A stretch of DNA of 64,000 nucleotides, from IMG/VR virus record IMGVR_UViG_3300022680_000058, positions 1 to 64,000 of that record. The stretch is one strand, 5' to 3'. This stretch comes from a virus. Shown here one piece after another: positions 29,899 to 52,228 of this stretch. The position numbers and the translations under genes were made by a program. Position 1 is the stretch's first letter, and every line of letters begins with the position of its first letter. The notes under the pieces are model-generated. The model saw only the letters and a list, made by a program, of their open reading frames with translations. It did no database searches and was not told the origin of the DNA.

Positions 29899-30690
29899 TC
29901 AGTATTCGGAATCCCACTCATATTCAGCTTCAATGTCAATCGGAACAAAAAAACTGAACGTCCATGGGGCCTTTGATTTGAGAGATATTTTTCCAATATC
30001 TGCCTTCATCTCCAAGTCAACATCGATAACGATCTCACCGCTCGTTTCACGAGAAAATTCCTCATCCGTCTCTTCATTTGCCGCGTCAACAGCCTTGCGG
30101 GCAAGAGCCCTGAGAGCATCATCGTCAAACCCGTACTCTTTCTCCCAGGTCTTTACCATGCTGGAGAGCTCTTCATCACCAAAATGATCAACGACTTTTC
30201 TATCAGTCGCGACCTTTTGAGCAATCGACGGGCCAACAAACCCAGAAAGTTGTCTTTTGATGTTTGCGCTGAGTTTTGAGCTTGAGAGCTTGTTCACCCC
30301 GGAGTATGACAGCTCTCTTGGATATGACGCTTTAGCGAAAAACCATTCAGGGTCAGGATCGTCAGGCCAATCGAAGTGCTCGTAGGAACTTTCCAGCTCG
30401 TCCTCACGAACGACCTTGAACTTTGGGTTTTTGTTCTTGAGCGTCTTGTCGATCAAAACACCAACACTCGATTGGAGACCAGAGAGCACCTCTGAAATCG
30501 CATCTTCGAGCTTACCCCGATCCACATTATCAGCCCCATGCCGGATCAAGGCGTCAGAAATGACATCGACAGAAGATACTTTTTTCTTCCTGGAAGCTTT
30601 CCGTCTCGGCTTGCGAGCCTTCGGAGCTCTAACATTATAAGAAGTCCGTCCGGAAGCAATCGCCTCTAACAACTCTTGTGAACCCTTCAT
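29899..30690 (-). CDS. tagged cargo-family protein (MKGSQELLE|AIASGRTSYNVRAP)
   Basis: GGAGGAG RBS before ATG at 30690; shares the post-Glu motif with genes at 46.5-52.2 kb. Confidence 0.7.
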   Translation of the reverse strand: MKGSQELLEAIASGRTSYNVRAPKARKPRRKASRKKKVSSVDVISDALIRHGADNVDRGKLEDAISEVLSGLQSSVGVLIDKTLKNKNPKFKVVREDELESSYEHFDWPDDPDPEWFFAKASYPRELSYSGVNKLSSSKLSANIKRQLSGFVGPSIAQKVATDRKVVDHFGDEELSSMVKTWEKEYGFDDDALRALARKAVDAANEETDEEFSRETSGEIVIDVDLEMKADIGKISLKSKAPWTFSFFVPIDIEAEYEWDSEY

Positions 30691-30740
30691 TTCTGGCTCC
30701 TCCAGCATTCATTGTATCAAACAGCAATGAATCCTTCACA

Positions 30741-30769
30741 AACATAAGTTGTATGATTTAGTTTGTCAA
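30741..30769 (-). promoter_or_regulatory. sigma70-type promoter
   Basis: TTGACA-N17-TATGTT upstream of 29899-30690. Confidence 0.7.
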
Positions 30770-30778
30770 TGTCATCGC

Positions 30779-30821
30779 AAAAAAATAGCCCCCTCCAGCT
30801 TTTCAGCCAAAGGGGGCTATT
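30779..30821 (-). terminator. rho-independent terminator
   Basis: AATAGCCCCCT..AGGGGGCTATT stem followed by a T-run on the minus strand. Confidence 0.8.
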
Positions 30822-31228
30822 CGAGTTCCCCTTACCCCTGGGCTTTATGTCGAAGTACCCAGCGGCTTTTGTCTTTTTGAGATCAGGTGCCCGCCCACCA
30901 TCACATCAGTTCTGCCCAACTTCTCAGAACCATGCCACCCCTATCGCACTGCCTGACGCGTTGCCTGGTGGCTCCCTTGGAATCGAGTTTCACTCGACAG
31001 AACAATATCCCCCTGTCCGGGGTTGCTATCGATGACTTGGGGTTATCTTGTTCACCCCTATCAGGCCACCGATGCTTTGTCCGTCCATCAGAGCGAGACT
31101 TCGTCTTATCCCAACCCCTGATGAACGTGCCGATGACTGACCAAGCCACCAGCAGCATCCTGAAAATCATTTCAACCCTTCACCGCCTTCTCCTGTGTTT
31201 TCGCCTATCTACCGGCTTTCATCCACAC
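30779..31228 (-). ncRNA. candidate large structured non-coding RNA (~450 nt), family unrecognised
   Basis: Own promoter and terminator, at least 8 nested helices with minus-strand G-U pairs, no convincing ORF. Confidence 0.6.
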
Positions 31229-31233
31229 CCAAC

Positions 31234-31261
31234 AGTCTAACTCTCCAGCGTTTTCTGTCAA
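31234..31261 (-). promoter_or_regulatory. sigma70-type promoter for the ncRNA candidate
   Basis: TTGACA-N16-TAGACT. Confidence 0.65.
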
Positions 31262-31284
31262 CACTGACAGACCGTTTTTATCGT

Positions 31285-31473
31285 CTAATTCATCCACCTC
31301 ATATCGAAGTGTTCATTCCATCCACGTCGCCACGCAACATGCTCTGGAGTGCCCTCTGGATACGGATTGTCTGGACTCCCAGCAAGGACACCATCACACT
31401 CGACGGATGTGTTGTAGCCTTCGTTGAAGGCGTTCCTTTGTGAACCCGTTTTTAGGTACCTATGCAGACTCAT
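31285..31473 (-). CDS. Rmf/CrpP-fold-like small protein
   Basis: AFNEGY..NPY..AWRRGW pattern as in ribosome-modulation-factor-like proteins. Confidence 0.55.
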   Translation of the reverse strand: MSLHRYLKTGSQRNAFNEGYNTSVECDGVLAGSPDNPYPEGTPEHVAWRRGWNEHFDMRWMN

Positions 31474-31918
31474 CGTTGATCCTCATCCCGTTCGATGACA
31501 GCTCATGGATCATCTTCGTGGTGTTCATGTCACACTTTGGGCACCTGAGTTCGACGGCTGCCCATCCCTCAGAGCCAAACTCGATGAGAGAGAAATCGAC
31601 TGCATGGACACCGGTCACCCCACAATTCCCACACTTCGACTTTACCTCCCTGAGATCCTGCTCGAATCCTGGAACATCCGGAGTTGGCGGAAGGTCCGGA
31701 CGAGGAACGCTCCAAATCCAAGCTCCCCAAGCATCTGAGAGGTGACACTTTCCATCAATCTCGTACACCACAACTGTAAGGCCACCTTGGCGCCCGTACT
31801 CCTCTCCTGTCGCCCGGATGTCATAGACCCCAGGCTCAGACGGGACACCCTTAGTCCACTGACCTTGCTGATAGCGCTTGAGTTGCTTCTCGAAGTCATA
31901 CCGAGTTTTCTGGTCCAT
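31460..31918 (-). CDS. hypothetical protein with C-terminal CxxC pairs
   Basis: WTKGVPSEPGVY..W; CGNC..CPKC. Confidence 0.65.
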   Translation of the reverse strand: MDQKTRYDFEKQLKRYQQGQWTKGVPSEPGVYDIRATGEEYGRQGGLTVVVYEIDGKCHLSDAWGAWIWSVPRPDLPPTPDVPGFEQDLREVKSKCGNCGVTGVHAVDFSLIEFGSEGWAAVELRCPKCDMNTTKMIHELSSNGMRINDESA

Positions 31919-31920
31919 GA

Positions 31921-32304
31921 CTACACCTCGAATTTGTTGTTTTTCCCAGCGGACAGCTTCAGGACCGGATCATTGATGTCGTCATCCCCTCCAAAGAGCG
32001 GGACAACCCTGACGTCAGATTCCGGATTCACCTCCAAAAGCTCTGCCTTCATCTTCCTGGCATCGTCGAACTCATCAAAGTTCTGGAACTGACGACCACC
32101 CTCAGTGATCTGGACCACCGAATACCCCGTGGGGTCCATATCCGGAAGAGCTCTTTGTTCAACCCCAAGTTTTTTGACCTCAATCGCCGCCAACGCAGTA
32201 TCCCGCATAGTTCTATATTTTAGCCAATCCGTGAACGAGAAGCTTCCAATCGCCAGAGCAGCCACACCACCGAGCACCAAAAACATCGCTGTAATCGGGT
32301 CCAT
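31921..32304 (-). CDS. hypothetical membrane-anchored protein
   Basis: GAGGAG RBS; N-terminal TM segment. Confidence 0.7.
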   Translation of the reverse strand: MDPITAMFLVLGGVAALAIGSFSFTDWLKYRTMRDTALAAIEVKKLGVEQRALPDMDPTGYSVVQITEGGRQFQNFDEFDDARKMKAELLEVNPESDVRVVPLFGGDDDINDPVLKLSAGKNNKFEV

Positions 32305-32314
32305 CTTCTTCTCC

Positions 32315-32602
32315 TCACCAGCCCATAGAGAGCCGTCTCATGTCGTCTTCTCGGTCCTCTTCTCGGCGGATCTCCCGAATCTCATCCTCGATATCGTCAT
32401 CGGCATATCCGCAGAGGTATTCATCATTCGCCGCCTCTTCTGCCTCTTCGTCGAGCTCTTCGAGATACTCCGTGTACTCATCTCGACAAAGCGCCCTCCC
32501 TCCTTGTCTCGCACGGGAACGAAAAGCCTTCGCCCGCCGCCTGGAATCGCCCTTTGAGAGAGACGCAACCTCGGTCCAACTTCCTGCCCCCAACGGTTTC
32601 AT
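32315..32602 (-). CDS. hypothetical protein, basic N-half and acidic C-half
   Basis: GGAGG RBS; ATGA overlap with the upstream gene. Confidence 0.6.
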   Translation of the reverse strand: MKPLGAGSWTEVASLSKGDSRRRAKAFRSRARQGGRALCRDEYTEYLEELDEEAEEAANDEYLCGYADDDIEDEIREIRREEDREDDMRRLSMGW

Positions 32603-33114
32603 GACTTACCTCCATTGACGAGCTCAGAAAACTCGTCGCTGTTGTCACTCCCTGTGATGGCTCGCCAAAGGTCGAAGGCTTCGTGAGCGTTGCAGTTCAC
32701 ACTCGCATAGAGCGCTTGAGCCATACAGACCTTGGCGGTCAAGGCCGGGTCATCCTGGTCTTTCTTGACACCAGACCACTCATCAACGAGAACCTGTTGT
32801 TCTTCATCAGAGAGGATGAACCAGTCCTCCTGATACTTCTCATCAGTGTTGACGAGGAGCGCCTTGTCAGCGACATTCCCCAAGAAGTCCAACACCACCG
32901 ACTCCTTTGTCTCAGGAGATAGTTGATCGACGAGGAGGAGCTCCTTCTCCGGACCCCAGAGACAGACGATGTCCAGAGCACGCTGAACGCCCGTCCGAAC
33001 ACCAGCCCAATATGATTCAGGATTCCACTCAAGCTCCGAACGACTGATACGCTCCCTCTCAGCCAGAACCTCAGACCTCAAGACACTAATCTTCTTCACC
33101 AACCCACTCAGCAT
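32599..33114 (-). CDS. hypothetical protein
   Basis: Probable start ATG at 33114, coupled to the upstream stop. Confidence 0.6.
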   Translation of the reverse strand: MLSGLVKKISVLRSEVLAERERISRSELEWNPESYWAGVRTGVQRALDIVCLWGPEKELLLVDQLSPETKESVVLDFLGNVADKALLVNTDEKYQEDWFILSDEEQQVLVDEWSGVKKDQDDPALTAKVCMAQALYASVNCNAHEAFDLWRAITGSDNSDEFSELVNGGKS

Positions 33115-33296
33115 GACGACCCTTCTTTCTGTCTTTTCAGCTCGAATTCGAGCATAGCTTTCACATCGACGAGCCCACTGATTCGACCCTCGTAGTAACG
33201 ACCCCACCGACTATCCGGAGAGTAGTGGCCACCGAGGCGCCTGGACTCTTCGATTGCCCCATCGATTTGCTTCAAGAGCTCATCCATGACGACCAA
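33108..33296 (-). CDS. small hypothetical protein
   Basis: Tiled in the operon; YYEGRISGL helix typical of small phage proteins. Confidence 0.55.
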   Translation of the reverse strand: MVVMDELLKQIDGAIEESRRLGGHYSPDSRWGRYYEGRISGLVDVKAMLEFELKRQKEGSSC

Positions 33297-33299
33297 CCC

Positions 33300-33491
33300 C
33301 TAATCTTCCCATGTGGTGTAGTAGACGCTTTTCCCATCCCGAAGACGACGCTCAGCATCTTTGGCGTGGAGCAAGTCACCACCCCACGTCTCGTAAACCA
33401 CAACATCGCCAACAATCGGCGTCTTTGTCGGGAGCCCGTACCACTTGATCATGCCTTTGTTTGCTGGCCTGCGCTCATGGGTCCGTCTCAT
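33300..33491 (-). CDS. small hypothetical protein (first gene of operon)
   Basis: GAGGGAGG RBS before ATG at 33491, directly after a promoter. Confidence 0.55.
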   Translation of the reverse strand: MRRTHERRPANKGMIKWYGLPTKTPIVGDVVVYETWGGDLLHAKDAERRLRDGKSVYYTTWED

Positions 33492-33516
33492 GGGGTCCCT
33501 CCCTCTCACAAACCTC

Positions 33517-33545
33517 AATCTAGTACCATGATTTGCGCTTGTCAA
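33517..33545 (-). promoter_or_regulatory. sigma70-type promoter
   Basis: TTGACA-N17-TAGATT. Confidence 0.65.
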
Positions 33546-33625
33546 CCGGACCAAAAGAAAAAAGCAAAAAACCTCACAGCGCAGATCGCCACCAGCTCTT
33601 TTGTCAAAAAAGAGTCCAGCATGCA

Positions 33626-33653
33626 TTGACAGACGTAAATCACATTATAAGAT
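33626..33653 (+). promoter_or_regulatory. divergent sigma70-type promoter
   Basis: TTGACA-N16-TAAGAT upstream of the only + strand gene. Confidence 0.6.
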
Positions 33654-33676
33654 TGTCAGTGAAAGGGAAACGAACC

Positions 33677-33877
33677 ATGACCAACCCGAACGAAACAGTC
33701 ACCGCTCTCCTTCGTCAGGCCCGCAAGACCTCGGGCGCATCGCCTGAAGAGGCGCACACCGCCGCCCTGGCAGCCTTGAACATGGCCCGGAAGCACAAGC
33801 TTCACGGAGCCATCATCGCCCGATGTCACAACGAACTCTTCAAAGCCAACTCTCGGCGACATCAAGCCGCCGCCTAA
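33677..33877 (+). CDS. DUF2786-like small helical protein
   Basis: GAAAGGGA RBS; TVTALLRQA..SPEEAHTAALAALNMARKH resembles the DUF2786 helical hairpin. Confidence 0.6.
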   Translation: MTNPNETVTALLRQARKTSGASPEEAHTAALAALNMARKHKLHGAIIARCHNELFKANSRRHQAAA

Positions 33878-33882
33878 CCTGC

Positions 33883-34257
33883 CTACGAATAATCCACCAA
33901 AGAAGCTTCGACGACGAAGTTTGCCTGATTGACGACGGGATACCTCACAGGTGGGGTCGCACTGGGATACTCGACTGAGATCCCGTAGTAGTAGCATCCC
34001 TTGGCGAGCACTGACTGGTCTGATGGGATTGTAATCGTCGCCTGACCGTTCTGGGCGTCCGTGATCTCAATTCCATTGTCGGGGCTGGATAGTTGAATCA
34101 GCGCATCTGAGCTCGAATCAGCCTTCACTGTGAAGTACATGACGGCGTCGACAAGAGACGCGTTGCGCCCCTCACAAGTCTTCACAGTGACCTTGATCAC
34201 CTTCGTCTGGCCACTGACGATCTTCACTGAGTTGAGTAGGTTGGGAGGTGTCGCCAT
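33883..34257 (-). CDS. BppU-like Ig-fold virion protein
   Basis: MYFTVK..GIEITDAQNGQATITIP..G.YYYGI pattern. Confidence 0.6.
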   Translation of the reverse strand: MATPPNLLNSVKIVSGQTKVIKVTVKTCEGRNASLVDAVMYFTVKADSSSDALIQLSSPDNGIEITDAQNGQATITIPSDQSVLAKGCYYYGISVEYPSATPPVRYPVVNQANFVVEASLVDYS

Positions 34258-34269
34258 CTTCTTGCCCTC

Positions 34270-34452
34270 TCAGTCGCTCTCTACGGCTGCTTCCAGGTCA
34301 CAATGAACCACAGAGCCCTGTAAGTCTGACGGCGCCTCAAGCACCGCTACAGCGTCACAAGACATCACTTCTCCTTTGAGGTCTTCCGTAATGGTCATCA
34401 CTGCCACAGCATCACACGAAACAACAGTCGCCCACGACGGAGAACTCAACAT
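34270..34452 (-). CDS. small protein with internal repeats
   Basis: Three SCDAVAV-like repeats; tiled between neighbours. Confidence 0.5.
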   Translation of the reverse strand: MLSSPSWATVVSCDAVAVMTITEDLKGEVMSCDAVAVLEAPSDLQGSVVHCDLEAAVESD

Positions 34453-34455
34453 GAG

Positions 34456-35103
34456 TTATCGCCTTCGGGACCCATGAGATCGCCCACGATCACCTTGCGA
34501 GGATGTCTGCTGCGAGGATTGATTCTTGAGCTGCGTAGCGATGCCTCTCATCTCTTGGAGTAGTTGCTGGCTTGTCTTGCTGTTCTCTTCCCGAGCAGTC
34601 TCAATGGCTTTGATTCTCTCGTCGTGAGCTGTGACCTTCTCGGGAATCTCATCGAGCGTTTCGAGCTGTGTCGCCGCCGCCGATGCCGCCGAGTTACTGG
34701 CGAGAGCTATCGTGATGGCTGTGCCACCAACTATCACCAACACACCGAGGACCCACCAAAGAAGCTTGCTCGTCCCCTTGGACCTCTCGTCCACTTTTGA
34801 CAGGTCAGACGATGTCTTGTTGATGCGCTCCATCTCAGTGCAATGGTCGACGCCGTGGATATCGGTGTTCAGAATGTGTGAGTCGATCTTCTGAAGAGCT
34901 TCTCTCGCTGTATCCCTGGCTTCTCTGACATCATTGGCAAGAGGAGGGATCAAGTCTTCCTTGATGCTCCTGACGTTCTCTGTGAGGCCGGTCAAGCCTT
35001 TCTCGATGTTCGTCAGCACAGTCATGGACACCGTGGTGTGCATGTCATTGAGGCGCCCCTGGTCGAGGTCAGATCCCATACTGCTTCTCCTCCTACCGCC
35101 CAT
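34456..35103 (-). CDS. single-pass membrane coiled-coil protein (lysis-related?)
   Basis: Central TM LLWWVLGVLVIVGGTAITIALA flanked by heptads; GGAGG RBS. Confidence 0.65.
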   Translation of the reverse strand: MGGRRRSSMGSDLDQGRLNDMHTTVSMTVLTNIEKGLTGLTENVRSIKEDLIPPLANDVREARDTAREALQKIDSHILNTDIHGVDHCTEMERINKTSSDLSKVDERSKGTSKLLWWVLGVLVIVGGTAITIALASNSAASAAATQLETLDEIPEKVTAHDERIKAIETAREENSKTSQQLLQEMRGIATQLKNQSSQQTSSQGDRGRSHGSRRR

Positions 35104-35147
35104 GGCCCCTCCTGGCGAATCAAATCGCCCATTTCAGTCGATTATCT

Positions 35148-40772: not shown

Positions 40773-43403
40773 CTATTCCGAAGAGCTGAAGATCTGCTCG
40801 AACCGGAACAGGAGAAATTCTCCAGGCTTGTTCACCGCGACATACACGTCACAGATGACCAGTCCATCCTCCTCGACGTTGGGAGGATTGTTGGTCTCAT
40901 CACAGATGACGGAAAACGCCTCCTGAGGCGTGTCACCCTTGAACAGCCCCTGCCCAAAGAGCGTCAACATGAAACTCTCGACGGACAGTTGAATGGTCTT
41001 CCTGAGGGACGAACCCACGTTCTCGAAAACGAACCCATGGGTACTGTTGAAGACCGAGACCTTCAGGAAGTTGAACAGCCTTCGAGCATGAATGAACCTG
41101 AAGTCCGATGGTGGATTCTCCAGAGTCCTTGCGCCCCACACACACCGCCCTGTCTGGGCAGTGTCCATGAGAGAGTTGACCTGCTTCGGGTGGAGAATAT
41201 CGAGCTCATCGAACTCCATGGTTCGTTCGAGACCGATGCTGAAATTCAGCTTGCCCTCGGTGACGCCAGCCGGAGCTCGACCCACAGATTTCGTGTTGTC
41301 CGTCCTAGCATACACACCAGCGATGTGCCCACCAGGAGGGATATTCACAGGAAGGTCCGTCACAGGGTCAGTGATCGTGATCCAAGGGTAGTACAGCGCG
41401 CCGTAACTGCTGTTCGCCCCGAGGTCATTGATCCTGTAACTCTGAGCCTGTTGAGGCGTGAGTCCCTCCGGAGTCGCCAGGATGATGAACCATTTCTCGT
41501 TCCGCTCGGCCTCTGTGAGCTGATCGAGGGACATCGTGACGTTTCCAGCCGCGTCAGGAATCGTGACGTTCTGGAGCTCGTTCGTCGGGAGCAAAGCGTA
41601 CATCCCTTCACGATCAGTGAGAAGGGTCGGGTCGGTGAGCTCGTTCCGAGTCACAGAGCCGGGAGACGCACCATCGGTACCACCGGCGGCATCCGTCTCA
41701 ACGAGACTGAGATCTGGTTGCTTGTAAAAGCTCGCCGTCGCGATCGACCCAGGAACGAGAACGGCAGGTCCGGCGCCGTGAGACGTCTCGGGCTCCTCGA
41801 TCTCCTGACCAGCGACGAGTCTGAACGCGAAGTGTCCGGTCGTGTAGTTGATGACGTTGAGATTCGACGGGGCTGTCCCATCGACGTCACCAATCAGATT
41901 CCCGTCACCGTCATCAGTGATGGTCCTCGTATTGCCACCAACATCCGTGTAGGTGATACTGACGGACCCTTGCTGAACAGGTGCCTCCAGCGGAAGCGTC
42001 CGAACACCAACCGGAATCACAGCCGACGTCAGACCACCACCACCAGCAGTGCCGTCAGTGGAGCCGTAATCGAGAGTCGGTGTCGCAACCGGGATACCGC
42101 CGTTTCCGGCAGCACACTGGACCGACCTAGCGAAACCACTCAGACGAACGGGGGCGACATCCGCATTCGACGGCTCGGTGAGCTCGATGTAGTCCGACCC
42201 GACACCGGCATTGTTGAGCACACTTCCAACGTACCGAGCATCAGAAGTGTCAGTGAAGCTCAAATCCTCGAAAATCTCTTCGAGGCTGCCGTCAACGGTC
42301 ACCAAGACATCAAACCGAGAGTACGACGCAGTGCTCCTGGTGAAGTAGTCATCGTCCCCACGGATGTCGACGTCCACACCGTTGCCCCAGGTACCTCCAG
42401 AGATGACCGAGTAGTCCCAGATCACCTGCGAATAGCAGACTTCGATCGGGCACTTGTTGTACGGAGCAGGAGACCCAGCATTGATGATGAAACTCGCCTG
42501 CCCTGTCGTGTAGTCGATGGTGTCCGACACGCCCGTGAGGACAGTGTCAGTAGACGCCAATGTTCCGGCGCCGTCATCAAAGATGGTGACCAAGTCTCCA
42601 GCCGGGGTGAAGTCCGCCGTCACCGCAGCCGCTGCATCGGGAACACTCGCCGTCGTTGTCTCGAAAGACAAGTTGAAGACGCCTGTCGTGTAATCGATGT
42701 ACCCACGAGCGATGTTGCTCGTATCGTAGAGAATACCGATTCCCTCTTGAGCTGGAGCCGGGGCATGAACCGCGTCATCACCATAGGTCACAGCGCCAGC
42801 GCTGACCAGCGTATTGATCGTCACTGACCCAGGAACGATCTTCGCGTCGTTCGCAACGACAATCCGGCTGATCATTGCATCGTTCGACGCCGCAGAAACA
42901 CCAGCCACACCATCAGGGACGGGAACAGGAGTCAGGGCCTGAGCCACAACCGGAGTCCCTGCTTCATAGTAGGTGATAGAGACACCACCAGGAGCAGGTG
43001 TGACTTGTTGGATCGGGAGTCCAGAAATGGCTGTGAGAGGAGTACCACCCGAAGAAAAGTCCTGCGTGGTACCATCACCCACACCAATCTGCTCCTCACA
43101 GACTGGATTCGTGAGCTCTCCGACAGCAGTCGCCGCGTCGGACGGGATCACACGAACGACATACGCTCGACGACCGCCATTCGCGAAAAACGCATAGACG
43201 TGTGTTGGAACCTGGCTCAGTGCGGTGAACGTCCCGAACTCTTCCGAGAAAGAGGTGTAGTTCGTCTTGAGCGTGGCTACGTTTGTCGGACCCTTGGTCG
43301 TGAAGCCGACGATGCCCATGTTCGACGTGGAAACGCCTTGAATCGGGGTCAACCCACTCGCGCGTTCCTCGACATACACGCCGGGATGGAGGTATTCTGC
43401 CAT
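40773..43403 (-). CDS. tail sheath protein
   Basis: YLHPGVYVEE, FFANGG, ALYYPWI, PPGGHIAGVYARTD, VWGARTL, KPGEF motifs. Confidence 0.95.
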   Translation of the reverse strand: MAEYLHPGVYVEERASGLTPIQGVSTSNMGIVGFTTKGPTNVATLKTNYTSFSEEFGTFTALSQVPTHVYAFFANGGRRAYVVRVIPSDAATAVGELTNPVCEEQIGVGDGTTQDFSSGGTPLTAISGLPIQQVTPAPGGVSITYYEAGTPVVAQALTPVPVPDGVAGVSAASNDAMISRIVVANDAKIVPGSVTINTLVSAGAVTYGDDAVHAPAPAQEGIGILYDTSNIARGYIDYTTGVFNLSFETTTASVPDAAAAVTADFTPAGDLVTIFDDGAGTLASTDTVLTGVSDTIDYTTGQASFIINAGSPAPYNKCPIEVCYSQVIWDYSVISGGTWGNGVDVDIRGDDDYFTRSTASYSRFDVLVTVDGSLEEIFEDLSFTDTSDARYVGSVLNNAGVGSDYIELTEPSNADVAPVRLSGFARSVQCAAGNGGIPVATPTLDYGSTDGTAGGGGLTSAVIPVGVRTLPLEAPVQQGSVSITYTDVGGNTRTITDDGDGNLIGDVDGTAPSNLNVINYTTGHFAFRLVAGQEIEEPETSHGAGPAVLVPGSIATASFYKQPDLSLVETDAAGGTDGASPGSVTRNELTDPTLLTDREGMYALLPTNELQNVTIPDAAGNVTMSLDQLTEAERNEKWFIILATPEGLTPQQAQSYRINDLGANSSYGALYYPWITITDPVTDLPVNIPPGGHIAGVYARTDNTKSVGRAPAGVTEGKLNFSIGLERTMEFDELDILHPKQVNSLMDTAQTGRCVWGARTLENPPSDFRFIHARRLFNFLKVSVFNSTHGFVFENVGSSLRKTIQLSVESFMLTLFGQGLFKGDTPQEAFSVICDETNNPPNVEEDGLVICDVYVAVNKPGEFLLFRFEQIFSSSE

Positions 43404-46096: not shown

Positions 46097-46112
46097 ACTC
46101 CTACTCCCTCCT

Positions 46113-46538
46113 CTACAACATACTCCGACCACCACCTGAAACCACTGGCCACTTCCCTCCCTGGTATGGGTTCGGCTTCAAAACGTTCCTGACATACAAG
46201 TCCTTCACCCGATCGAGCCGAGACTTCTCCATGTCAGGGGGTGGGACGACCCACACAAGATACTTTTCCGGGTCCACATCCACTTCGAGAGTCGTCCCCG
46301 ACGAAACGTCTCGAACCCGAACAACACCAATGGCAGGATCAACCTGAGTGATTCGACCATGCTTGATGATGTTCTTCCCCTTCTTTGACCTCACAGTGAC
46401 CAACTGCCCAGCCATCAGGTTTACCCGCTCTGCCGCCTCCTCCAGCCTCGCAGAGTTTTCCACGATGTCAGAGACCTCGGATTCCTGTAAGGCTACAATC
46501 GCCTCTCTGAGGACCGCATTGATGCGCTGAACATCCAT
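46113..46538 (-). CDS. leader-tagged protein (MDVQRINAVLREAIVALQE), SH3-like payload
   Basis: Shared leader; GQLVTV..GRITQVD..VRVRD beta barrel. Confidence 0.75.
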   Translation of the reverse strand: MDVQRINAVLREAIVALQESEVSDIVENSARLEEAAERVNLMAGQLVTVRSKKGKNIIKHGRITQVDPAIGVVRVRDVSSGTTLEVDVDPEKYLVWVVPPPDMEKSRLDRVKDLYVRNVLKPNPYQGGKWPVVSGGGRSML

Positions 46539-47173
46539 CAGACCGGAACTCCCTCGTAGCCAATGACACCCTTGATGTCCATGACCATCTCTCCGACCTT
46601 ATCGACCTGTGATTGGGCAAATGTTCTGGCGTCACCCTTCGATGATGTGAAGAAGATTCCGCGAGACCCCCATCCGCGTCTCACTGTCTTGACATAGACA
46701 GCACTTTCCCGCTCCTTTGACACCTTGATCAGAAATCTCTTCTTTCCACCCTTGCTGGCGCCCCCACCCTGAGCTTCGAGTTCTGCCAAAGTTTCACGAC
46801 CGAGCTGTGTAATGGACCACTTCTCAATCTCGGAGCCATCATCGTCACCCTTGTAGACCTCCATCACAATGAGGCCAAGATCCTCCATCTTGTAGAGGGT
46901 TGGAGTGAACATCCCCGTGATTGCTTTCGTGCCCATCGGGGTCGTGTACCACTTCCAGTAGTACCCAGTCCCAGGGTGCCTGGTGTAGAGGGTCCCATGG
47001 TCAGCAAGGTTTCTGAGCGTCTGCACAGCCTTTGGGGCGAGCCTTGGGAGCTTCTTCCCCTTCCGCCCTTTACCCTTGCTCGACAACTGTTTTGGCGTCG
47101 GAATTTCGTATCCACCGAGCTTCGTCTCACTAATTGCCGCATGAAGTTGTGCTGAAAGTTTAGGCATCATCAA
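46538..47173 (-). CDS. tagged basic protein with winged-helix-like payload
   Basis: AISE|TKLGGYEIPTP, K-rich linker, TLYKMEDLGLI..WSITQLGRETL. Confidence 0.7.
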   Translation of the reverse strand: MMMPKLSAQLHAAISETKLGGYEIPTPKQLSSKGKGRKGKKLPRLAPKAVQTLRNLADHGTLYTRHPGTGYYWKWYTTPMGTKAITGMFTPTLYKMEDLGLIVMEVYKGDDDGSEIEKWSITQLGRETLAELEAQGGGASKGGKKRFLIKVSKERESAVYVKTVRRGWGSRGIFFTSSKGDARTFAQSQVDKVGEMVMDIKGVIGYEGVPV

Positions 47174-47730
47174 ATCCTGTCGTGTTCCGTCTTTCGGAAC
47201 GGCACGAACTTCGACCTAAGCTTGACCTCGATCTTGAACTGAACGAAGGTTGATGTCGTGAAGACATTTCCATCCCTGGTAGCCTTCACTACATCCCACT
47301 GACTGAACTGAGACGAGTTTCCGAATGGAACCTCTGACCAAAATTCGATAATGTCGCCCTTCTTCGGATACGGGGCGCTCCTGTCCTCGAACTCTTTTCT
47401 TGAAATCCAGATGACAGCCTCAGACTCCGTTCTCGCACCCTGCTCACTTGCTTCCACAGTGACATTGTCCGACTGTGGATAGTCAATCGCCGCATAGAGC
47501 TCGAAAGGCCCGTTGTACGACCAATCCTTCCCCTCATGAGAGGGCTCTCCATAAACAGGATCTCGATTCTTAGCTCTACGAAGCTGATAGAGCTTCACAG
47601 GCTCTCCAGCGAGCCTGGCAGGCTCTGTAGCAACGGAGTCCCACAACGCTTGTTCCGTGCCACAATCATCACAATCGCTGCCCGGAAAGATGCGTCTCGT
47701 GGGCTCGCAGTCGTCGCTACAGAACCCCAT
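47170..47730 (-). CDS. neck / head closure protein (gp14-like)
   Basis: GEPVKLY..DPVYGE..PKKGDII motifs. Confidence 0.7.
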   Translation of the reverse strand: MGFCSDDCEPTRRIFPGSDCDDCGTEQALWDSVATEPARLAGEPVKLYQLRRAKNRDPVYGEPSHEGKDWSYNGPFELYAAIDYPQSDNVTVEASEQGARTESEAVIWISRKEFEDRSAPYPKKGDIIEFWSEVPFGNSSQFSQWDVVKATRDGNVFTTSTFVQFKIEVKLRSKFVPFRKTEHDRI

Positions 47731-48314
47731 CACCACCACCCCTGATATTTCGCCGGTGGCCTCTTCTGAGCATGTCCAGTAACAGACCTGGCGATATTTC
47801 CAAGCTTCTTGGCATAGTTCGTGATTTTGCTGGCGAGCGTCTTGATCCCTCCCTCATCATCAATCGAGACATTCTTCCCGATCGTCATGAGCTCTGGGTA
47901 CTCATCAACCCACTGGTCCACAACCATCTGAGCATCTTTCTTCCGGTCAAAGAATGTCCCCTCATACCCGCCAAAAGCCATGCTCATCCCAGTTGTGGCA
48001 TGAGAAATAACCCACGAAGTTCCTTTATGGCTCTTGTGAACAGCCCAGACACCTTTGACATACGCCTTGATTGGCTGCTTCGTGTGCCCCTCATCATGGA
48101 ACATGTTCGGGACACGGATCTTGATGGTTTTCCCCGACCATCCAGTCGGCCCTTTCTTCCCCTTCTTCGGCGACTTCATCCCAAAAGTCCCTGGAGCACG
48201 AACATCATAGCTCGTTACACCAGAGGCTATTGCCTCAGCCATTACGGCGATCTCATCTTCTTGAAATGTTGAAATCGCCGTCACGAGAACAGTGTTGACC
48301 GTGTGAACATCCAT
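47730..48314 (-). CDS. leader-tagged protein (MDVHTVNTVLVTAISTFQE)
   Basis: Shared leader plus AE|AIASGVTSYDVRAP. Confidence 0.75.
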   Translation of the reverse strand: MDVHTVNTVLVTAISTFQEDEIAVMAEAIASGVTSYDVRAPGTFGMKSPKKGKKGPTGWSGKTIKIRVPNMFHDEGHTKQPIKAYVKGVWAVHKSHKGTSWVISHATTGMSMAFGGYEGTFFDRKKDAQMVVDQWVDEYPELMTIGKNVSIDDEGGIKTLASKITNYAKKLGNIARSVTGHAQKRPPAKYQGWW

Positions 48315-48841
48315 CACATATCTGCCTTGAACGCAAGGTGCGCTTTCAGAGCTTCGAGGATGTCCTTGTAGACGTCTTTCACGGTTCTGCCCGACGTGAT
48401 GATCGATGCCTTACCATGGTTGAGAACGCCGCCGACATCAACAGAGCTCGGGTTGATGAACATGTCAATGTTCTTCTGCCAGCCGACCTTCTTCTCATCG
48501 AAATCGACGAAGACCTGTCGTCTGTCCTTCTTCTTCCCGGTTCCCTTGTAGCCCTGGTAGACCCTCTTGGTTCCTGGGAGGTCTTTCTTGAGCTTCTTGA
48601 GCTGCTTCAAGAGCGCCGTAGAAAACTTGACCCTCTCTTCGAGAGTCCCCCCGCCAGTGATCCCCGCTGGAGAGAACTTCGATGGAGGAGGAGGAGTATA
48701 CTGCTGTCCACGAGGGGACGGAACTCTGTACACCCCGGTGACACCATGAGCCATCGCCGCCTCGTGGAGGTCGTCAACCTCACACTCCTGGAAGAAAACA
48801 ATGGCTTCGACCAGTGTCGTATTGACCGCCTGAATGTCCAC
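48314..48841 (-). CDS. leader-tagged protein (MDIQAVNTTLVEAIVFFQE)
   Basis: Shared leader plus LHE|AAMAHGVTGVYRVPSP. Confidence 0.75.
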   Translation of the reverse strand: MDIQAVNTTLVEAIVFFQECEVDDLHEAAMAHGVTGVYRVPSPRGQQYTPPPPSKFSPAGITGGGTLEERVKFSTALLKQLKKLKKDLPGTKRVYQGYKGTGKKKDRRQVFVDFDEKKVGWQKNIDMFINPSSVDVGGVLNHGKASIITSGRTVKDVYKDILEALKAHLAFKADM

Positions 48842-48844
48842 AGC

Positions 48845-49171
48845 TCACCCCTTTTTCTTGGTCCGGTTCTTCATGATGCTGACGCAAACGCCTTCCGGCT
48901 CTTTCGCCTTGGAACACCGTCGGAAAGCATCAACACAGTCTGAGAAGCTATTGAAGTCCTTCCCTTGCTTGTCTCGGTACTTCCGCATGCAGTCAGGTTC
49001 GCTCTTGATGGGACCTGTGGGCCGCTTCCGCTCCTTGCCCTTCTTCCCCCTCTTGGCAAGCGCCGCCGGTGTTGGAGGCGTGTATGCCGCCTCGGAGATC
49101 CCATCGATGTCCGCTTCCTGAAAACCGATGATTGCTTGAAGGAGAACCGAATTGACCTGCCCGATATCCAT
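48845..49171 (-). CDS. leader-tagged basic Cys protein (MDIGQVNSVLLQAIIGFQE)
   Basis: Shared leader plus ISE|AAYTPPTP. Confidence 0.75.
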   Translation of the reverse strand: MDIGQVNSVLLQAIIGFQEADIDGISEAAYTPPTPAALAKRGKKGKERKRPTGPIKSEPDCMRKYRDKQGKDFNSFSDCVDAFRRCSKAKEPEGVCVSIMKNRTKKKG

Positions 49172-49174
49172 GAC

Positions 49175-49768
49175 CTACCTCGCTTCACCAACACCAACGG
49201 ACTCAAAGGCAGGATCGCCCTCCATTTTGTCCGCATGGGGATAATACCTCATGGTGTAAAGCCAGCCCTTCAATGGGGCAAGCCCACCAGTTCCATAATA
49301 CTCTGTCGTGAACCTGCCCTTGAACGCCTTGCCGCCGATCTTTGTCCTGAGTGTTTTTGCGACATCTTTTGCAATCTTTGGAACATCTTTCGACTTGCCA
49401 TCGTCAGCGTCCATGAAGATAGAAACCTGGAATTGCGGTCCAAGCTTCTTCGAGACGTCCTGACCAAAAGTGTGGCCTGTAGCACGGATCGAAATCTTGG
49501 GGTACTTCTGCTTGAACTTTTTGTCCAATTCAGAGGCTATCGCGATGATTCTCGATCCGTAGATTCTCTCGAAGTGTTTAGCAAGGTGCATCTTGCTATA
49601 CCGCTTGAACTCCTCAGGACTCGGCACATGGAATCCAGACCCGTACTTCTCTCCGGTAGCGCTCGTTCTGTACGGCTTCCCGACGATGTACACTGACTCT
49701 TCGAGCTCACTCTCTTGGAAGCCGATGATCGCCTGAAGAAGAACCGAGTTGACTTGCCTGATATCCAC
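49175..49768 (-). CDS. leader-tagged protein (MDIRQVNSVLLQAIIGFQE)
   Basis: GTG start at 49768; leader nearly identical in protein to 48845-49171. Confidence 0.75.
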   Translation of the reverse strand: MDIRQVNSVLLQAIIGFQESELEESVYIVGKPYRTSATGEKYGSGFHVPSPEEFKRYSKMHLAKHFERIYGSRIIAIASELDKKFKQKYPKISIRATGHTFGQDVSKKLGPQFQVSIFMDADDGKSKDVPKIAKDVAKTLRTKIGGKAFKGRFTTEYYGTGGLAPLKGWLYTMRYYPHADKMEGDPAFESVGVGEAR

Positions 49769-49772
49769 GCCC

Positions 49773-51227
49773 TCACCCCTTGCCCAACAATTCAACAATA
49801 TCATGCACAGGGACCCAGCCGGGAGATGTTTTCAGAAGAGGGAGACTCTTGAGCGCCTCTTCTGCTTCGACCTGCTCCGGATCTGACCCAAGTTTCTTGA
49901 GCTCACGAACGACCTCGAATCGCTCTCCATCCTGAGTCACTGTGTGAGCGGACCTCTCGTCAGTGAACTTTCCGTCTTTCCCGTGGTAGGTCTTCGACTC
50001 GCCGAACACCTGTTTCCTAGCCTTGACGAGCTTGATCTTCCTCTGGAACTTCCCCTGAACGTCGTCACCCTCGAAACCAACCTTGTTGAGGTAGATTTCT
50101 GTCGCACGAATCCACTCCCGCTGTCGGTGGGCTTCTTCGTCCCGATCATCCACAGAATGCATGAGAGCGAGACCAGCCATGGCCACCCCGTACCAGAATG
50201 GACTCGATGACCTTAGATGACGAAACGCCGTGTCGTCGTCGATGTCACTCCACGTCCAACCAGTACCACCCTGGTAAGACGTCTTTGCCCTTGTCGTTCG
50301 ACGAACCTTCGCCTTGGCAAAAGCGATATCGAGGAGCTTATCAGCGAGACGCCTCGCAGGATGCCTTGTCATCATCCTCGGGACGAAACGTTTCAACATC
50401 TCAGGATTCGCACGAGATGACATCCTCATGAAGTTCTTCTCGTTCGAAACAGCCTCTCGGTCCTCGGGCACGTCAACCCTCTTGGCCCAATTGACACCCT
50501 TCATGTACTGAGACGTGTCACGCCTGAGGTTTGGCAACGGGACATCAACATCAACCCCAGCGAGCTCAACCCCCATGGTCTTTCTTGGACCCGAGGCCTT
50601 GTCCTTCTTCCCCATCACATCCTTCTCTGGGTTGATGTCCTCTGGGTTCAGGTACTTGCTCCTGAGCTCACGAGCTGTTCTCTGTACGTAGTCCTCACGT
50701 TCGCTCTTCGGCAACGCCCCCTTGAGCGCCGATCCAGCCATCGCCACGCCATACCAGAACGGATCAGTCTTGAGGAGGTCACCAGGAACTACCCCATGGA
50801 ACTGATACCCGCCCCGAGTTGTCCCTACGCGCCTCATCTTATCGGCGACCAGATCCACTGGGTGAGTGATGTTCGCCACGACAGTCCCCTGGTCGAGCAA
50901 GACAGCGATAGACTTCCTGTCCATCTTCTTCGCCCCCTCCAGGCTCTTCGTGATGGACCTGAGCTTCGGGTCCTCGAACTCGGGCAGATCCTTCGTCATG
51001 TTTTTGTTCGCCCAGTTGACACCCTTAACAAACTGAGACTGGCGTCCAGGGGATGTGTTCGGGACCTTGACGTCAGCCGTGACGCCCCCATAACTGATGA
51101 TCGGCTTCTGCCGATAGAGAGGCGTCGGGTCCTTCTCCACTTTCGGCGGCGCCGGAACATCAAAAGACGTCACTCCCTTGGCGACTGCTTCATCAACGCG
51201 GCTGAAAAGATTGCCCCACCTACTCAT
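49773..51227 (-). CDS. tagged protein with two copies of an unrecognised domain
   Basis: ATG at 51227 with GAGG RBS; VDE|AVAKGVTSFDVPAP; duplicated KGVNWA..HP..PFWYGVAMAG. Confidence 0.75.
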   Translation of the reverse strand: MSRWGNLFSRVDEAVAKGVTSFDVPAPPKVEKDPTPLYRQKPIISYGGVTADVKVPNTSPGRQSQFVKGVNWANKNMTKDLPEFEDPKLRSITKSLEGAKKMDRKSIAVLLDQGTVVANITHPVDLVADKMRRVGTTRGGYQFHGVVPGDLLKTDPFWYGVAMAGSALKGALPKSEREDYVQRTARELRSKYLNPEDINPEKDVMGKKDKASGPRKTMGVELAGVDVDVPLPNLRRDTSQYMKGVNWAKRVDVPEDREAVSNEKNFMRMSSRANPEMLKRFVPRMMTRHPARRLADKLLDIAFAKAKVRRTTRAKTSYQGGTGWTWSDIDDDTAFRHLRSSSPFWYGVAMAGLALMHSVDDRDEEAHRQREWIRATEIYLNKVGFEGDDVQGKFQRKIKLVKARKQVFGESKTYHGKDGKFTDERSAHTVTQDGERFEVVRELKKLGSDPEQVEAEEALKSLPLLKTSPGWVPVHDIVELLGKG

Positions 51228-51235
51228 GACCAACC

Positions 51236-51640
51236 TCACACAGTTTTCTCGATGTCCCTGAACAGATCCTTGAATCGCTTGTACTTCGCCGGGGCTTCTT
51301 TTTCCATGGCGTGCTTCATCGTCCGGCGAGCTCCCTTCTGAGTCTGCCTGATGCTCGACACCTGACCGCCCTTCTTGTAGGGGGGCTTCAGGTATCCATT
51401 GCGAGTCATCGCCCAACGACAGATGTTCCACGCCGCACGAACGCTCTTCTTCTTCCCACCATTCTTGCCATCTTTCACAGCGACGATACAGTGAGCAAGC
51501 TGAGCTGGAACCCTGTCGACCTTCGCCGCCGCCTTCGAGCCGCCTGGCTTCTGTTGCTGGCGAGGAGGTTTCCTCCTCAGACCTCCACGGGGAGCTTGGC
51601 GCCTCTCAAGAATCATCTCGACTGGTACCCACAGACTCAC
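51236..51640 (-). CDS. basic hypothetical protein
   Basis: MSLWVPVEMILE| start; very K/R-rich; HC..IC Cys pair. Confidence 0.7.
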   Translation of the reverse strand: MSLWVPVEMILERRQAPRGGLRRKPPRQQQKPGGSKAAAKVDRVPAQLAHCIVAVKDGKNGGKKKSVRAAWNICRWAMTRNGYLKPPYKKGGQVSSIRQTQKGARRTMKHAMEKEAPAKYKRFKDLFRDIEKTV

Positions 51641-51643
51641 AAC

Positions 51644-52228
51644 TCACCCCACACACAGATCGTTGCAGATGTTCGAGAAGTATTTCTTCTTCAAGGCTAC
51701 AACCTCTCGGTCGACGTAGTCATCCTTCTGCCTCATCGTGAGGGAGCGAATGAGCGCCTCCCCGACCATCCCGACAGCGTACCAATAAGGATCGGTTTCC
51801 AGCATCTGGTCTGGTACCGTTCCGTCGTACCTGTAACCGGCTTTCTGTGAAGCCATAGCGATCAGCTTCTTCGCCACCCGCTCAACAGGATGCCTCATCA
51901 CAGACTGATACCGACCAGACGAAAATCCGGAACGGACAGCTCCAATGTTCCGGCCAGACTGCTTCTCGATCTCACGAACAACGAACGCCAAACCCTCATC
52001 AGGAGGTGGCGGGTCCTTCAAGACAGTATCCTTCACCCACTCGACGCCGAGCCTGAACTTCTCGTTCGTCCACGCAGACCCCGCTGGCGTCTTCACAGTA
52101 GCGCTCACAGGCCCGTAAGAAACTCTGAGGGGGACTCCACCCCTGGTCACCTTCCTTTGCATTTGAGACGGCGTAGGCACCTTGTATGAGCCAGCCATCG
52201 CCTCCAGCAACCGAGCGGAGAGCTGCAT
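51644..52228 (-). CDS. tagged protein with one copy of the same unrecognised domain
   Basis: MQLSARLLE|AMAGSYKVPTP; GVEWV..HP..DPYWYAVGMVG. Confidence 0.75.
   Translation of the reverse strand: MQLSARLLEAMAGSYKVPTPSQMQRKVTRGGVPLRVSYGPVSATVKTPAGSAWTNEKFRLGVEWVKDTVLKDPPPPDEGLAFVVREIEKQSGRNIGAVRSGFSSGRYQSVMRHPVERVAKKLIAMASQKAGYRYDGTVPDQMLETDPYWYAVGMVGEALIRSLTMRQKDDYVDREVVALKKKYFSNICNDLCVG

Follow-up and report, generated by a model that had tools for sequence, protein, structure and literature searches.

Some phages inject proteins together with their DNA to disarm host defences, and the T4 leader is already in use for loading foreign proteins into capsids; the retention, dosage and release of internal proteins once the leader is gone are, to our knowledge, little understood. 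The 64,000-nt window analysed here, one portion of the 148-kb genome of an uncultured T4-like phage, raises this question in a specific form, namely what the recurrent peptide is that follows a predicted leader cleavage site in eight of its genes, all on the minus strand (Table 1), and what it would do inside the head. The phage carries a gp20-type portal protein, a gp21-type prohead protease and a gp23-type major capsid protein. In the protease, an S77/gp21-like domain (aa 19-166) is joined to an acidic, scaffold-like tail of considerable length that contains many [LIVM]-x-E↓A sites, and alignment to the T4 gp21 structure 5JBL places the catalytic His in ELDHP and the catalytic Ser in VSSRG. 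Judged from sequence, this is the presumed enzyme that cuts the cargo at Glu.

All eight instances of the peptide quoted in the initial annotation were found in the sequence at the gene starts assigned to them. The core [YF]-x-[VI]-P-[STA]-P occurs in these eight genes and in five more elsewhere in the genome (positions 104531, 106889, 108877, 110318 and 119508), usually 1-13 residues past [LIM]-x-E. The proposed exposure directly after the Glu would apply to seven of the quoted genes, whereas in g49768 the motif follows 27 residues past LEE. The expected enrichment over shuffled N-termini was borne out, with 8 matches in a crude gene set of the phage compared to 0.26-0.31 expected and a maximum of 3-4 in 2000 shuffles; for the genome, N-terminal matches number 8-12 against about 0.3 expected. 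When the strict pattern was searched in all six frames of the whole genome, ten N-terminal sites of long ORFs and four junk-frame sites were obtained, and a profile of leader plus motif matched 16 places, five of them through the Glu and motif half alone (per-genome E-values of 1.4e-6 to 0.02, g30708 being matched in this way with 1.4e-6).

Table 1 Features of the window, with positions on the 64,000-nt stretch.
Feature	Position	Strand	Remark
Cargo gene g30708, 269 aa	29899..30708	-	database start 30690
g30708 short leader, aa 1-15	30664-30708	-	predicted P1 Glu at 30664-30666
g30708 flavour-A motif, LLE then AIASGRTSYNVRAP	30622-30663	-	followed by K/R run
Cargo with MD leader, no motif, 141 aa	46113..46538	-	sequence and profile search
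Cargo gene g47167 (start 47167-47173)	46538..47167	-	short leader aa 1-14
g47167 Glu	47126-47128	-	end of ISE
g47167 flavour-B motif TKLGGYEIPTP	47093-47125	-	followed by K/G/R run
Cargo gene g48314	47730..48314	-	MD leader aa 1-27 at 48234-48314
g48314 Glu	48234-48236	-	end of MAE
g48314 flavour-A motif AIASGVTSYDVRAP	48192-48233	-	followed by KSPKKGKKG
Cargo gene g48841, MD leader	48314..48841	-	Glu at 48761-48763, end of LHE
g48841 motif AAMAHGVTGVYRVPSP	48713-48760	-	plus second degenerate copy YTPPPP
Cargo gene g49171, 108 aa, MD leader	48845..49171	-	Cys-rich body
g49171 Glu	49091-49093	-	end of ISE
g49171 short motif AAYTPPTP	49067-49090	-	followed by K/R run
Cargo gene g49768, MD leader ending LEE	49175..49768	-	LEE at 49697-49699
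g49768 motif core FHVPSP (GSGFHVPSP)	within 49616-49696	-	27 residues downstream of LEE
Cargo gene g51227, 484 aa	49773..51227	-	short leader aa 1-13
g51227 Glu	51189-51191	-	end of VDE
g51227 flavour-A motif AVAKGVTSFDVPAP	51147-51188	-	sequence and profile match
Cargo gene g52228	51644..52228	-	9-residue leader MQLSARLLE
g52228 Glu	52202-52204	-	end of LLE
g52228 flavour-B motif AMAGSYKVPTP	52169-52201	-	followed by SQMQRK
gp23-type major capsid protein	53726..55219	-	tblastn; PF07068 in relatives
Prohead protease	55255..56895	-	Pfam PF03420, E 2.2e-16
gp20-type portal protein	59193..60983	-	Pfam PF07230, E 8.6e-57

Beyond this genome, a profile search revealed 113 protein clusters with the same leader, all of metagenomic origin, of which 70 have the motif, in 15 of them as two copies; these clusters had no match in Pfam, PHROG, PDB or cultured phages, and the motif is limited to one phage sub-clade. 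The consensus reads [SG]-[YF]-x-V-P-[STA]-P-x-[QEK]-[MLF]-[GAH]-[KFR]-K and comes in three flavours, and in a logo of 110 instances the last Pro is fixed (100%), followed by Y/F (98%), the first Pro (86%) and Val (76%). Compared with the protein bodies, the first 90 residues show a 25-fold greater motif density. An SPKK or AT-hook core ([ST]-P-[KR]-[KR] or R-G-R-P, usually repeated) was considered as a description and rejected, [ST]-P being followed mostly by A, G or K and then by Q, E or K; the [ST]-P-x-[EQ] part could correspond to a helix N-cap pattern. The motif is also conserved in orthologues, as had been anticipated, since it is kept over the 113 clusters and in orthologues of 32-47% identity, to the same degree as catalytic or Cys residues. 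For g49171, the Glu, the next Ala and the last Pro are invariant in six orthologues of 38-47% identity (alignment A6), with Y or F at the aromatic position in all six. At the nucleotide level, the 12 paralogues in the genome use the same codon at just 31% of identical residues, and g30708 and g48314 have 13 of 15 residues in common, yet 29 of 45 bases.

The motif and the leader proved to be separate elements, in agreement with the earlier view that two tags are combined independently. Eight genes of the genome join the motif to a long MD leader (in a divergent form at 108877) and five to a short leader of 9-15 residues, and among orthologues retaining their leader the motif can be present or absent, while its three flavours are exchanged within single body families. 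The leaders are variable too: relatives of the motif-less cargo at 46113..46538 have a short LSxQLxE↓A leader in place of the MD leader. Where a second copy exists, it follows 9-32 residues further on, 12 of 16 such pairs having no intervening Glu, and one orthologue of g48841 (L027 14938) holds two full copies. In polyproteins the motif recurs past internal Glu sites, e.g., as E↓AMAxGVTSYxVPxP before internal cargo-like bodies in P0091 and P0104. Saturated synonymous sites and this modular gain, loss and swapping establish the post-Glu peptide as a separate, portable short linear motif under selection rather than a leftover of duplication, and its absence from several cargo orthologues indicates that some cargo can do without it.

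The cargo proteins begin with a short predicted N-terminal propeptide ending in L/I-x-E, and among the motif-bearing representatives [LIM]-x-E lies 1-13 residues upstream of the aromatic residue in 74 of 75, with M, L or I at P3 in 73/74 and Ala at P1' in 49/74; alignments A1 and A6 show no variation at the predicted cleavage Glu. In the AF2 model of g48314, residues 3-30 form a helix and the motif is coil. The suggestion that the motif becomes the mature N-terminus may thus be kept in the form that the motif would coincide with the predicted one or start no further than 13 residues from it. The Lys-rich linker assigned to it is clear in about six of the 13 genes of the genome and generalises only in part. 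The Lys/Arg run is absent past flavour C in some proteins such as g106889. Across 74 motif-bearing representatives, 62% have a net charge of at least +3 in the 25 residues past the last motif, the mean for the 25 residues past the motif being +4.2.

What follows the motif is diverse. Fifteen of 16 leader proteins are net basic (charge +2 to +18), the body of g30708 is acidic, and the mature parts are diverse and fast-evolving. By BLASTP the cargo bodies are mutually unrelated except for two paralogue pairs, g51227 being a paralogue of g52228 with a duplicated body domain, and g52228 and g110318, although unrelated in their bodies, have N-terminal modules of 75% identity. No cargo protein belongs to a Pfam or PHROG family, g30708 and g52228 had no relatives besides themselves in 5.8e9 proteins, and homology to T4 IPI/II/III or Alt was found neither in Pfam or PHROG nor by tblastn in 50,697 phage records. 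Two large motif-bearing cargo proteins contain HExxH. In the one encoded at genome positions 106925-108877, all three orthologues have AHE[MS]GHHIY and EEAF[CA]E as invariant elements, giving the HExxH and downstream Glu ligand of gluzincins, and the modelled core (residues 235-478, pLDDT 70-89) matched PPEP-3 (Z 9.3) and PPEP-2 and the lethal-factor catalytic domain (both Z 8.8), which are middling scores; in Foldseek the best E-value was just 0.0096, with all top matches being zincins. Phage-packaged zincin-like metallopeptidases have been described in polyvalent proteins (PMC5512222), to which the likeness would be that of zincin-like packaged phage cargo. Polyvalent proteins are, however, multidomain giants, unlike the single-enzyme cargo with a T4-type leader found here, for which the putative zincin family link is drawn only from middling Z scores and motifs.

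The closest known arrangement is that of T4, where the CTS (MKTYQEFIAE) and the proteins IPI, IPII, IPIII and Alt likewise combine head genes of T4 type, a brief propeptide at the N-terminus that closes with hydrophobic-x-Glu, encoded beside a gp21-type protease, and basic, diverse cargo of fast turnover with common leaders on unrelated bodies (PMC3012670, PMC8442874, PMC9026906). The 9-residue leaders here (MKGSQELLE, MQLSARLLE) agree with the T4 leader in length and in their hydrophobic-x-Glu ending. The cargo differs in showing no sequence similarity to the proteins of T4, in having an additional leader type of some 27 residues and, above all, in the conserved motif of 12-18 residues past the predicted cut, no such post-cleavage motif being mentioned in four T4 papers (PMC3012670, PMC7697877, PMC8442874, PMC9026906). 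A protein fused to the 10-residue T4 leader alone is retained and delivered (PMC8442874, PMC9026906), so T4 needs no second motif. In phiKZ and SPN3US (gp175/gp245, A-x-E sites), many head proteins are cut after x-x-Glu by a gp21-like protease and propeptides are common to paralogous ejection proteins, but these propeptides mostly span 111-254 residues, the cleavage logo ends at P1' and no post-cleavage motif was reported (PMC10052503). DarA-Hdf of P1 is also internal head cargo processed by the head protease; it lies on the inner capsid wall, touching DNA, and is missing from heads emptied of DNA (PMC12810830). The P1 Dar proteins differ in being folded proteins at defined capsid sites, with no shared linear peptide and no sequence relation. 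Encapsulin cargo-loading peptides are short, portable and sometimes repeated, and direct unrelated cargo inside an HK97-fold shell; they follow a GSL-type consensus, are usually C-terminal, involve no protease step and bind the inner shell face. The consensus found here, compared by eye, is not GSL-type. The cargo may resemble T4 internal proteins in its working without being a member of their families by sequence.

We favour, at a probability of about 40%, the view that these genes are counterparts of the T4 internal head proteins and that the motif is a docking or retention peptide which, within the head, acts jointly with the Lys/Arg run next to it. An acidic, amphipathic helix at the N-terminus, in its long MD-I-x-x-V-N... 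form or as a 9-15-residue LSxxLxE form, would bring the cargo into the prohead scaffolding core, and the gp21-type S77 protease would then make a single cut past [LIM]-x-E. The hydrophobic anchors Y/F, V and M, the fixed prolines, the presence in one or two copies and the place by the new N-terminus suggest a docking peptide, which, more tentatively, may bind one common protein site within the head while the Lys/Arg run contacts DNA, so that the cargo would be held or positioned once leader and scaffold are gone, in an amount set by the motif copy number. Precedents are DarA-Hdf on the inner capsid wall of P1 and the contacts of Lys residues of T4 internal proteins with DNA phosphates (PMC12810830, PMC3012670). 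Against docking counts that the internal proteins of T4 are located away from the shell, in the inner phase of the DNA (PMC7697877), as do the leader-only T4 fusions, the cargo orthologues without the motif and the missing Lys/Arg run past flavour C in some proteins. A possible but doubtful extension is a two-part address, in which the cleavable leader loads the prohead and the retained motif (0-2 copies, three interchangeable flavours) sets the holding place, the amount or the exit order; if true, this phage clade would have a portable second code that T4 lacks and that could be used to programme retention or delivery of foreign proteins.

Other roles have to be weighed against retention. The motif could act in delivery or on the host side, as in the 'package, then deliver' code of the initial annotation, threading cargo into the portal and tail channel or anchoring it, once ejected, to some conserved protein of the host or to an envelope component. 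In 74 of 75 representatives no more than 13 residues separate it from the predicted new N-terminus and, like an export signal, it is common to about 13 otherwise unrelated cargo proteins per genome; its restriction to one sub-clade could mean a shared host, and the large zincin-like cargo (479-650 aa) must traverse a narrow channel. We nevertheless regard this as unlikely, given that orthologues without the motif persist, that second copies lie well inside the chain and that no PDB chain matches the motif profile, and we know of no host-binding motif that it resembles. Moreover, T4 leader-only fusions reach cells, the leader being enough for packaging and delivery of foreign proteins, so that a separate delivery signal is without precedent (PMC9026906). 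An exosite that helps the S77 protease to find or present the adjoining Glu site, with no later role, would suit the tight adjacency to [LIM]-x-E, the retention of the motif beside internal Glu sites of polyproteins with decayed leaders, and the AF2 picture of a leader helix stopping just past the Glu with the motif extended. It is made decidedly improbable by the Glu-to-aromatic spacing, which falls into three groups (1-4, 6-7 and 9-10 residues) and hence keeps no fixed register with the protease active site, by second copies mostly without a preceding Glu, by motif-less leader proteins that retain the same [LIM]-x-E↓A, and by candidate sites without the motif in the protease tail, scaffold-like proteins and the capsid protein; the logos of gp21 and SPN3US gp245 likewise show few determinants past P3-P1 and P1' (PMC9026906, PMC10052503).

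That the motif joins with the Lys/Arg run in a minor-groove anchor of SPKK or AT-hook type, tying the cargo to the packaged genome with which it would leave, appears quite unlikely to us, because conservation is strongest at hydrophobic residues and Pro (Y/F, V, P, P, M) and not at basic ones, Y and F are interchangeable, [KR][KR] comes right after [ST]-P in a minority of copies only and acidic sequence can follow flavour C. In its favour are the positive mean charge past the motif, copies reading VPSPKK, KSPKKGKKG or PTKKGMPRKRR, and the observation that in T4 internal proteins the DNA phosphates are touched by Lys residues only (PMC3012670). The genes are clustered and share leaders, and the nearly common module of g52228 and g110318 might suggest a remnant of one ancestral N-terminal module, spread among cargo genes by duplication and recombination and without a function of its own. 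Given the codon analysis, this reading is disfavoured and in our estimate very improbable: the peptide is kept although synonymous sites are saturated, it is conserved across clusters and orthologues, extra copies occur, and its presence varies among orthologues that keep the leader.

A portable, selected peptide at the predicted new N-terminus of about a dozen unrelated cargo proteins, common to at least 70 metagenomic protein clusters, offers a handle on how cargo is held, dosed and released, as it can be mutated, transplanted or used as bait for its partner. Should it serve as a tag for retention or delivery, phage-based protein delivery would gain a second control; should it be just an exosite of the protease, a gp21-type protease would thereby have its first extended recognition element, none being known to us. 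The cargo also makes up a large family, so far without annotation, of proteins that are probably injected as effectors, with zincin-like enzymes among them, in an uncultured T4-like clade.

The window covers the first 64 kb of a 147,979-bp virus contig that carries inverted terminal repeats and is estimated to be 77% complete; nearly all genes are encoded on the minus strand. By its predicted genes, the head module of the window is of T4 type (Table), the protease aligning to the solved T4 gp21 structure 5JBL with its His in ELDHP and its Ser in VSSRG, where the crystallised 5JBL chain reads Ala. The capsid protein is just 32% identical to its best named relative and has more than 2000 relatives in metagenomes, indicating that the phage represents a large uncultured clade. 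In the acidic scaffold-like protein, the strongly basic block that directly follows a candidate site (TMDE↓ALKRRKK; ↓, predicted cut) may be a further internal basic peptide freed by processing. Two observations come from related records: in L028 inteins split the portal gene as well as its upstream neighbour, and in the close relative L027 a HicA-toxin-like protein, opening with MRLSEEL and resembling a short cargo leader, is encoded between the capsid and adaptor genes.

Table. Coordinates of head genes, leader-bearing proteins and related features; positions refer to the window unless marked as genome positions or as a related record (L numbers; L024 and L025 are later segments of the same genome).
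Feature	Position	Strand	Domain or remark
gp20-like portal	59193-60983		PF07230, E 8.6e-57
Prohead protease fused to long acidic tail	55255-56895		PF03420 Peptidase_S77, E 2.2e-16
gp23-like major capsid protein	53726-55219		
gp13/SU10-like adaptor	52232-53011		
Sheath	40773-43403		
Acidic scaffold-like protein	57131-58171	-	
Short-leader protein, no motif	3873-4781	-	MRLSQRLDE↓A
Short-leader protein, no motif	genome 105405-105863	-	MLSLSQRLSE↓A
650-aa cargo protein	genome 106925-108877 (L024:6925-8877)	-	HExxH
Second large cargo protein	genome 108879-110318 (L024:8879-10318)	-	HExxH
Flavour-C protein	genome 106889 (L024:5864-6889)		
Flavour-C protein	genome 119508 (L025:508-1149)		
Y-x-P-P-[ST]-P copies	48713-48760; 49067-49090		
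Intein-split portal gene	L028:999-6218	+	PF14890
Intein-split gene upstream of portal	L028:1-855		PF14890
HicA-toxin-like protein	L027:12564-12833	+	PF07927
MD/MN-leader proteins with acidic body	L014:17227; L018:14009; L022:12001; L028:18353	+	

The initial annotation had described a peptide tag exposed after a predicted Glu cleavage, and every instance it quoted was found at the start of the gene named. The core reads [YF]-x-[VI]-[PRL]-[AST]-P. Across all six frames of the whole genome, the strict pattern fell on 10 N-terminal sites of long ORFs versus 4 junk-frame sites, and the proposed enrichment over shuffled N-termini held in a test based on a crude gene set, with 8 N-terminal matches against 0.26-0.31 expected and a maximum of 3-4 in 2000 shuffles. 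A profile search of the genome matched at 16 places, ten of them in the leader part, with or without the motif, and five in the Glu and motif half alone (cargo genes named by their start: g30708, E 1.4e-6; g51227, 1.3e-5; g110318, 3.4e-5; g52228, 7.5e-5; g47167, 0.02), the remaining match being a second motif copy in g119508. Beyond the window the motif is present in five more genes, belonging to a second cluster of cargo genes (104-110 kb) or, in one case, standing alone (119.5 kb). As claimed, the motif occurs with and without the MD leader: eight genes carry it behind a long MD leader (one a divergent form) and five behind short leaders of 9-15 residues, and both leader types are also found without it. 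Two further proteins (Table) begin with a short leader and have no motif; leader-bearing proteins are not confined to the two clusters.

Searching 1.84 billion representative proteins with a profile of 12 leader and motif N-termini yielded 113 clusters at E <= 1e-3 (51 at E <= 1e-10), almost all matches starting at residue 1; the motif core lay within 110 residues in 70 of the 113 and was present twice in 15. The density of the strict motif in the first 90 residues was 25-fold that in the bodies; as the motif was part of the search profile, this ratio carries some ascertainment bias. The logo of 110 instances, [SG]-[Y69 F29]-x-[V76]-[P86]-[S49 T23 A15]-[P100]-x-[Q E K]-[M36 L F V]-[G A H]-[K F R]-K, covers three flavours: A, E↓A-x-A-x-G-V-T-S-Y-x-V-P-x-P; B, E↓A-x-I-G-G-Y-x-V-P-[ST]-P; and C, E↓(0-3 residues)-F-x-V-P-[ST]-P-x-[EQ]-M-H-[RK]-K-x-G-M-x-L-P. 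Pfam and PHROGs searches with all 16 leader proteins and 10 metagenomic relatives gave nothing above noise, and the motif profile had no match among PDB sequences at E up to 10. Against 50,697 phage records, tblastn with the N-terminal module returned chance-level matches alone (E 4-5), no cultured phage there carrying the module, and g52228 had no match at an E limit of 0.01. In a word-indexed protein search g30708 and g52228 each found itself alone, and g30708 had no match in five related records; for want of relatives, the orthologue test was impossible for these two genes, and conservation was tested in other families.

There the proposed conservation was upheld: in two families of 32-47% identity the motif is kept in orthologues, parts of it being as invariant as catalytic or Cys residues. 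In one alignment Y, V, the last P, L and K are invariant, and in that of the g49171 family the last P is invariant and every row has Y or F. The motif regions of g30708 and g48314 share 13 of 15 residues and just 29 of 45 bases. Over 66 paralogue pairs the same codon is used at 31% of identical residues and third bases agree in 33%, so that the codons are saturated while the peptide is kept, which rules out that the likeness stems from recent duplication or gene conversion. Judged from these codons and alignments, the motif is under selection, and that it should have no function is very improbable.

In T4, leader residues 8 and 10 (L/I-x-E) govern processing (PMC9026906). From this rule and the protease type, together with the features of the Glu itself and of natural polyproteins, we infer that the protease cuts after the Glu. 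This Glu is invariant in the alignments, and in 74 of 75 representatives [LIM]-x-E precedes the aromatic residue by 1-13 residues, P1' being Ala in 49. In the polyproteins P0091 (993 aa) and P0104 (864 aa), cargo-like bodies that are separate genes in the window are linked by E↓AMAxGVTSYxVPxP units with decayed leaders. In the AF2 model, residues 3-30 form a single leader helix that stops shortly after the Glu, and the motif is coil. A real cut downstream of the motif was rejected, no conserved hydrophobic-x-Glu being found there. With the predicted cut, the first residue of the mature protein would be F, R or K in 21 of 74 representatives, as in flavour-C proteins (Table); in many bacteria these N-terminal residues mark proteins for ClpS-dependent degradation.

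Given the two leader types, unrelated bodies, flavour swaps, gain and loss among orthologues, and second copies, the gene comparisons indicate that the motif is a module separate from the leader. The independent combination of the two tags put forward in the initial annotation was thereby borne out, either leader type occurring with or without the motif, which varies while the leader stays. The cargo bodies are unrelated save for two paralogue pairs, the similarity of other pairs lying essentially within the first 25-60 residues, and members of a single body family differ in flavour (A, B or C) or lack the motif. In close relatives, whose capsid protein is 77-80% identical, syntenic orthologues keep the leader and gain or lose the motif: a basic 134-aa protein has it in L027 and L004 and lacks it in the window and L003, and the 'KITxAxVKRAL' protein has it in L004 and L003 and lacks it in L027. 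Leaders are swapped as well: g46538 carries an MD leader in the window, its counterparts in L003, L027 and L029 a short one (LSxQLxE↓A). Second motif copies follow 9-32 residues downstream, 12 of 16 without a Glu between the copies. A single folded domain of leader and motif was unsupported by the AF2 model of the 55-residue module, weak evidence in which helix is followed by coil with no compact leader-motif fold evident. The more distant relatives L014, L018, L022 and L028, with 63-70% identity in the capsid protein, each encode just one MD/MN-leader protein, which has a strongly acidic body and lacks the motif. The leader may have originated in an acidic protein of the core or scaffold, and its spread to basic cargo may have been restricted to the window's sub-clade.

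The residues conserved in the motif are prolines or hydrophobic, Y and F can replace each other, [ST]-P-x-[EQ] resembles a helix cap and copies can be doubled, features that would suit a peptide fitting a protein groove; the multivalency suggests a repeated or oligomeric receptor. Our preferred reading, at a probability of about 0.4, is that the motif would serve within the head as a peptide for docking or retention. A signal for delivery or on the host side seems unlikely, as T4 cargo needs nothing but its leader to be loaded, retained and delivered (PMC8442874, PMC9026906). Somewhat more doubtful still is a protease exosite: the register from the Glu varies, second copies lack a Glu, and the capsid protein, the tail of the protease and the scaffold-like proteins have candidate sites without the motif. 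An anchor on DNA is equally doubtful, the motif itself not being basic. By contrast with the leaders (mean charge -3.8), the 25 residues after the motif average +4.2, and 15 of 16 leader proteins are net basic; this basic run probably touches DNA, by analogy with T4 internal proteins, whose Lys residues do so (PMC3012670). As receptor for the motif, g46538, a conserved leader cargo with a beta-rich body, was set aside, its orthologues also occurring in motif-less relatives. To our knowledge, the spacing fits neither a sliding-clamp motif, a TonB box or ClpX tags nor the A-x-A sites of signal peptidase or herpes protease.

Two large cargo proteins with leader and motif, both outside the window, contain HExxH. 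In the 650-aa protein AHE[MS]GHHIY and EEAF[CA]E are kept in orthologues, and the modelled core (pLDDT 70-89) has zincins as its best non-helical structural matches, with Z scores of 9.3 and 8.8 for Pro-Pro endopeptidases, 8.8 for the lethal-factor catalytic domain and 8.6 for ERAP1; in Foldseek zincins filled all top rows with weak E-values, and atlas scores were below 0.9. Each of the two is probably a packaged metallopeptidase of the zincin type. Some 10% of motif copies have the form Y-x-P-P-[ST]-P, in the window (Table) and in P0018, P0020, P0030, P0045, P0050, P0067 and P0079, and their P-P-x-P string resembles what is cleaved by Pro-Pro endopeptidases, the enzymes that the modelled cargo core matched best; one idea is that the putative zincin would trim the tag. 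At residues about 485-497 the 650-aa protein has an internal short-leader-like string, LSSQLVEALLSE, before a C-terminal extension absent from the orthologues P0095 and P0087, and C-terminal processing may occur there; such processing has been described for T4 Alt.

The cargo system would work like the leader-targeted internal proteins of T4, which it resembles in every other feature tested, sequence homology being absent. T4 cargo lies in the inner DNA phase (PMC7697877), the opposite of the arrangement in P1, where processed cargo sits on the inner capsid wall, contacts DNA and is absent from DNA-emptied heads (PMC12810830). The SPN3US cleavage logo ends at P1' (PMC10052503), and no conserved post-cleavage motif is described for T4, phiKZ/SPN3US or P1 in PMC3012670, PMC12810830, PMC9026906 or PMC10052503. 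Zincins are the commonest domain of phage-packaged polyvalent proteins (PMC5512222), and the cargo set would fit an arsenal of injected effectors. What is new here is that a T4-type cargo system has, besides the leader, another tag that is portable.
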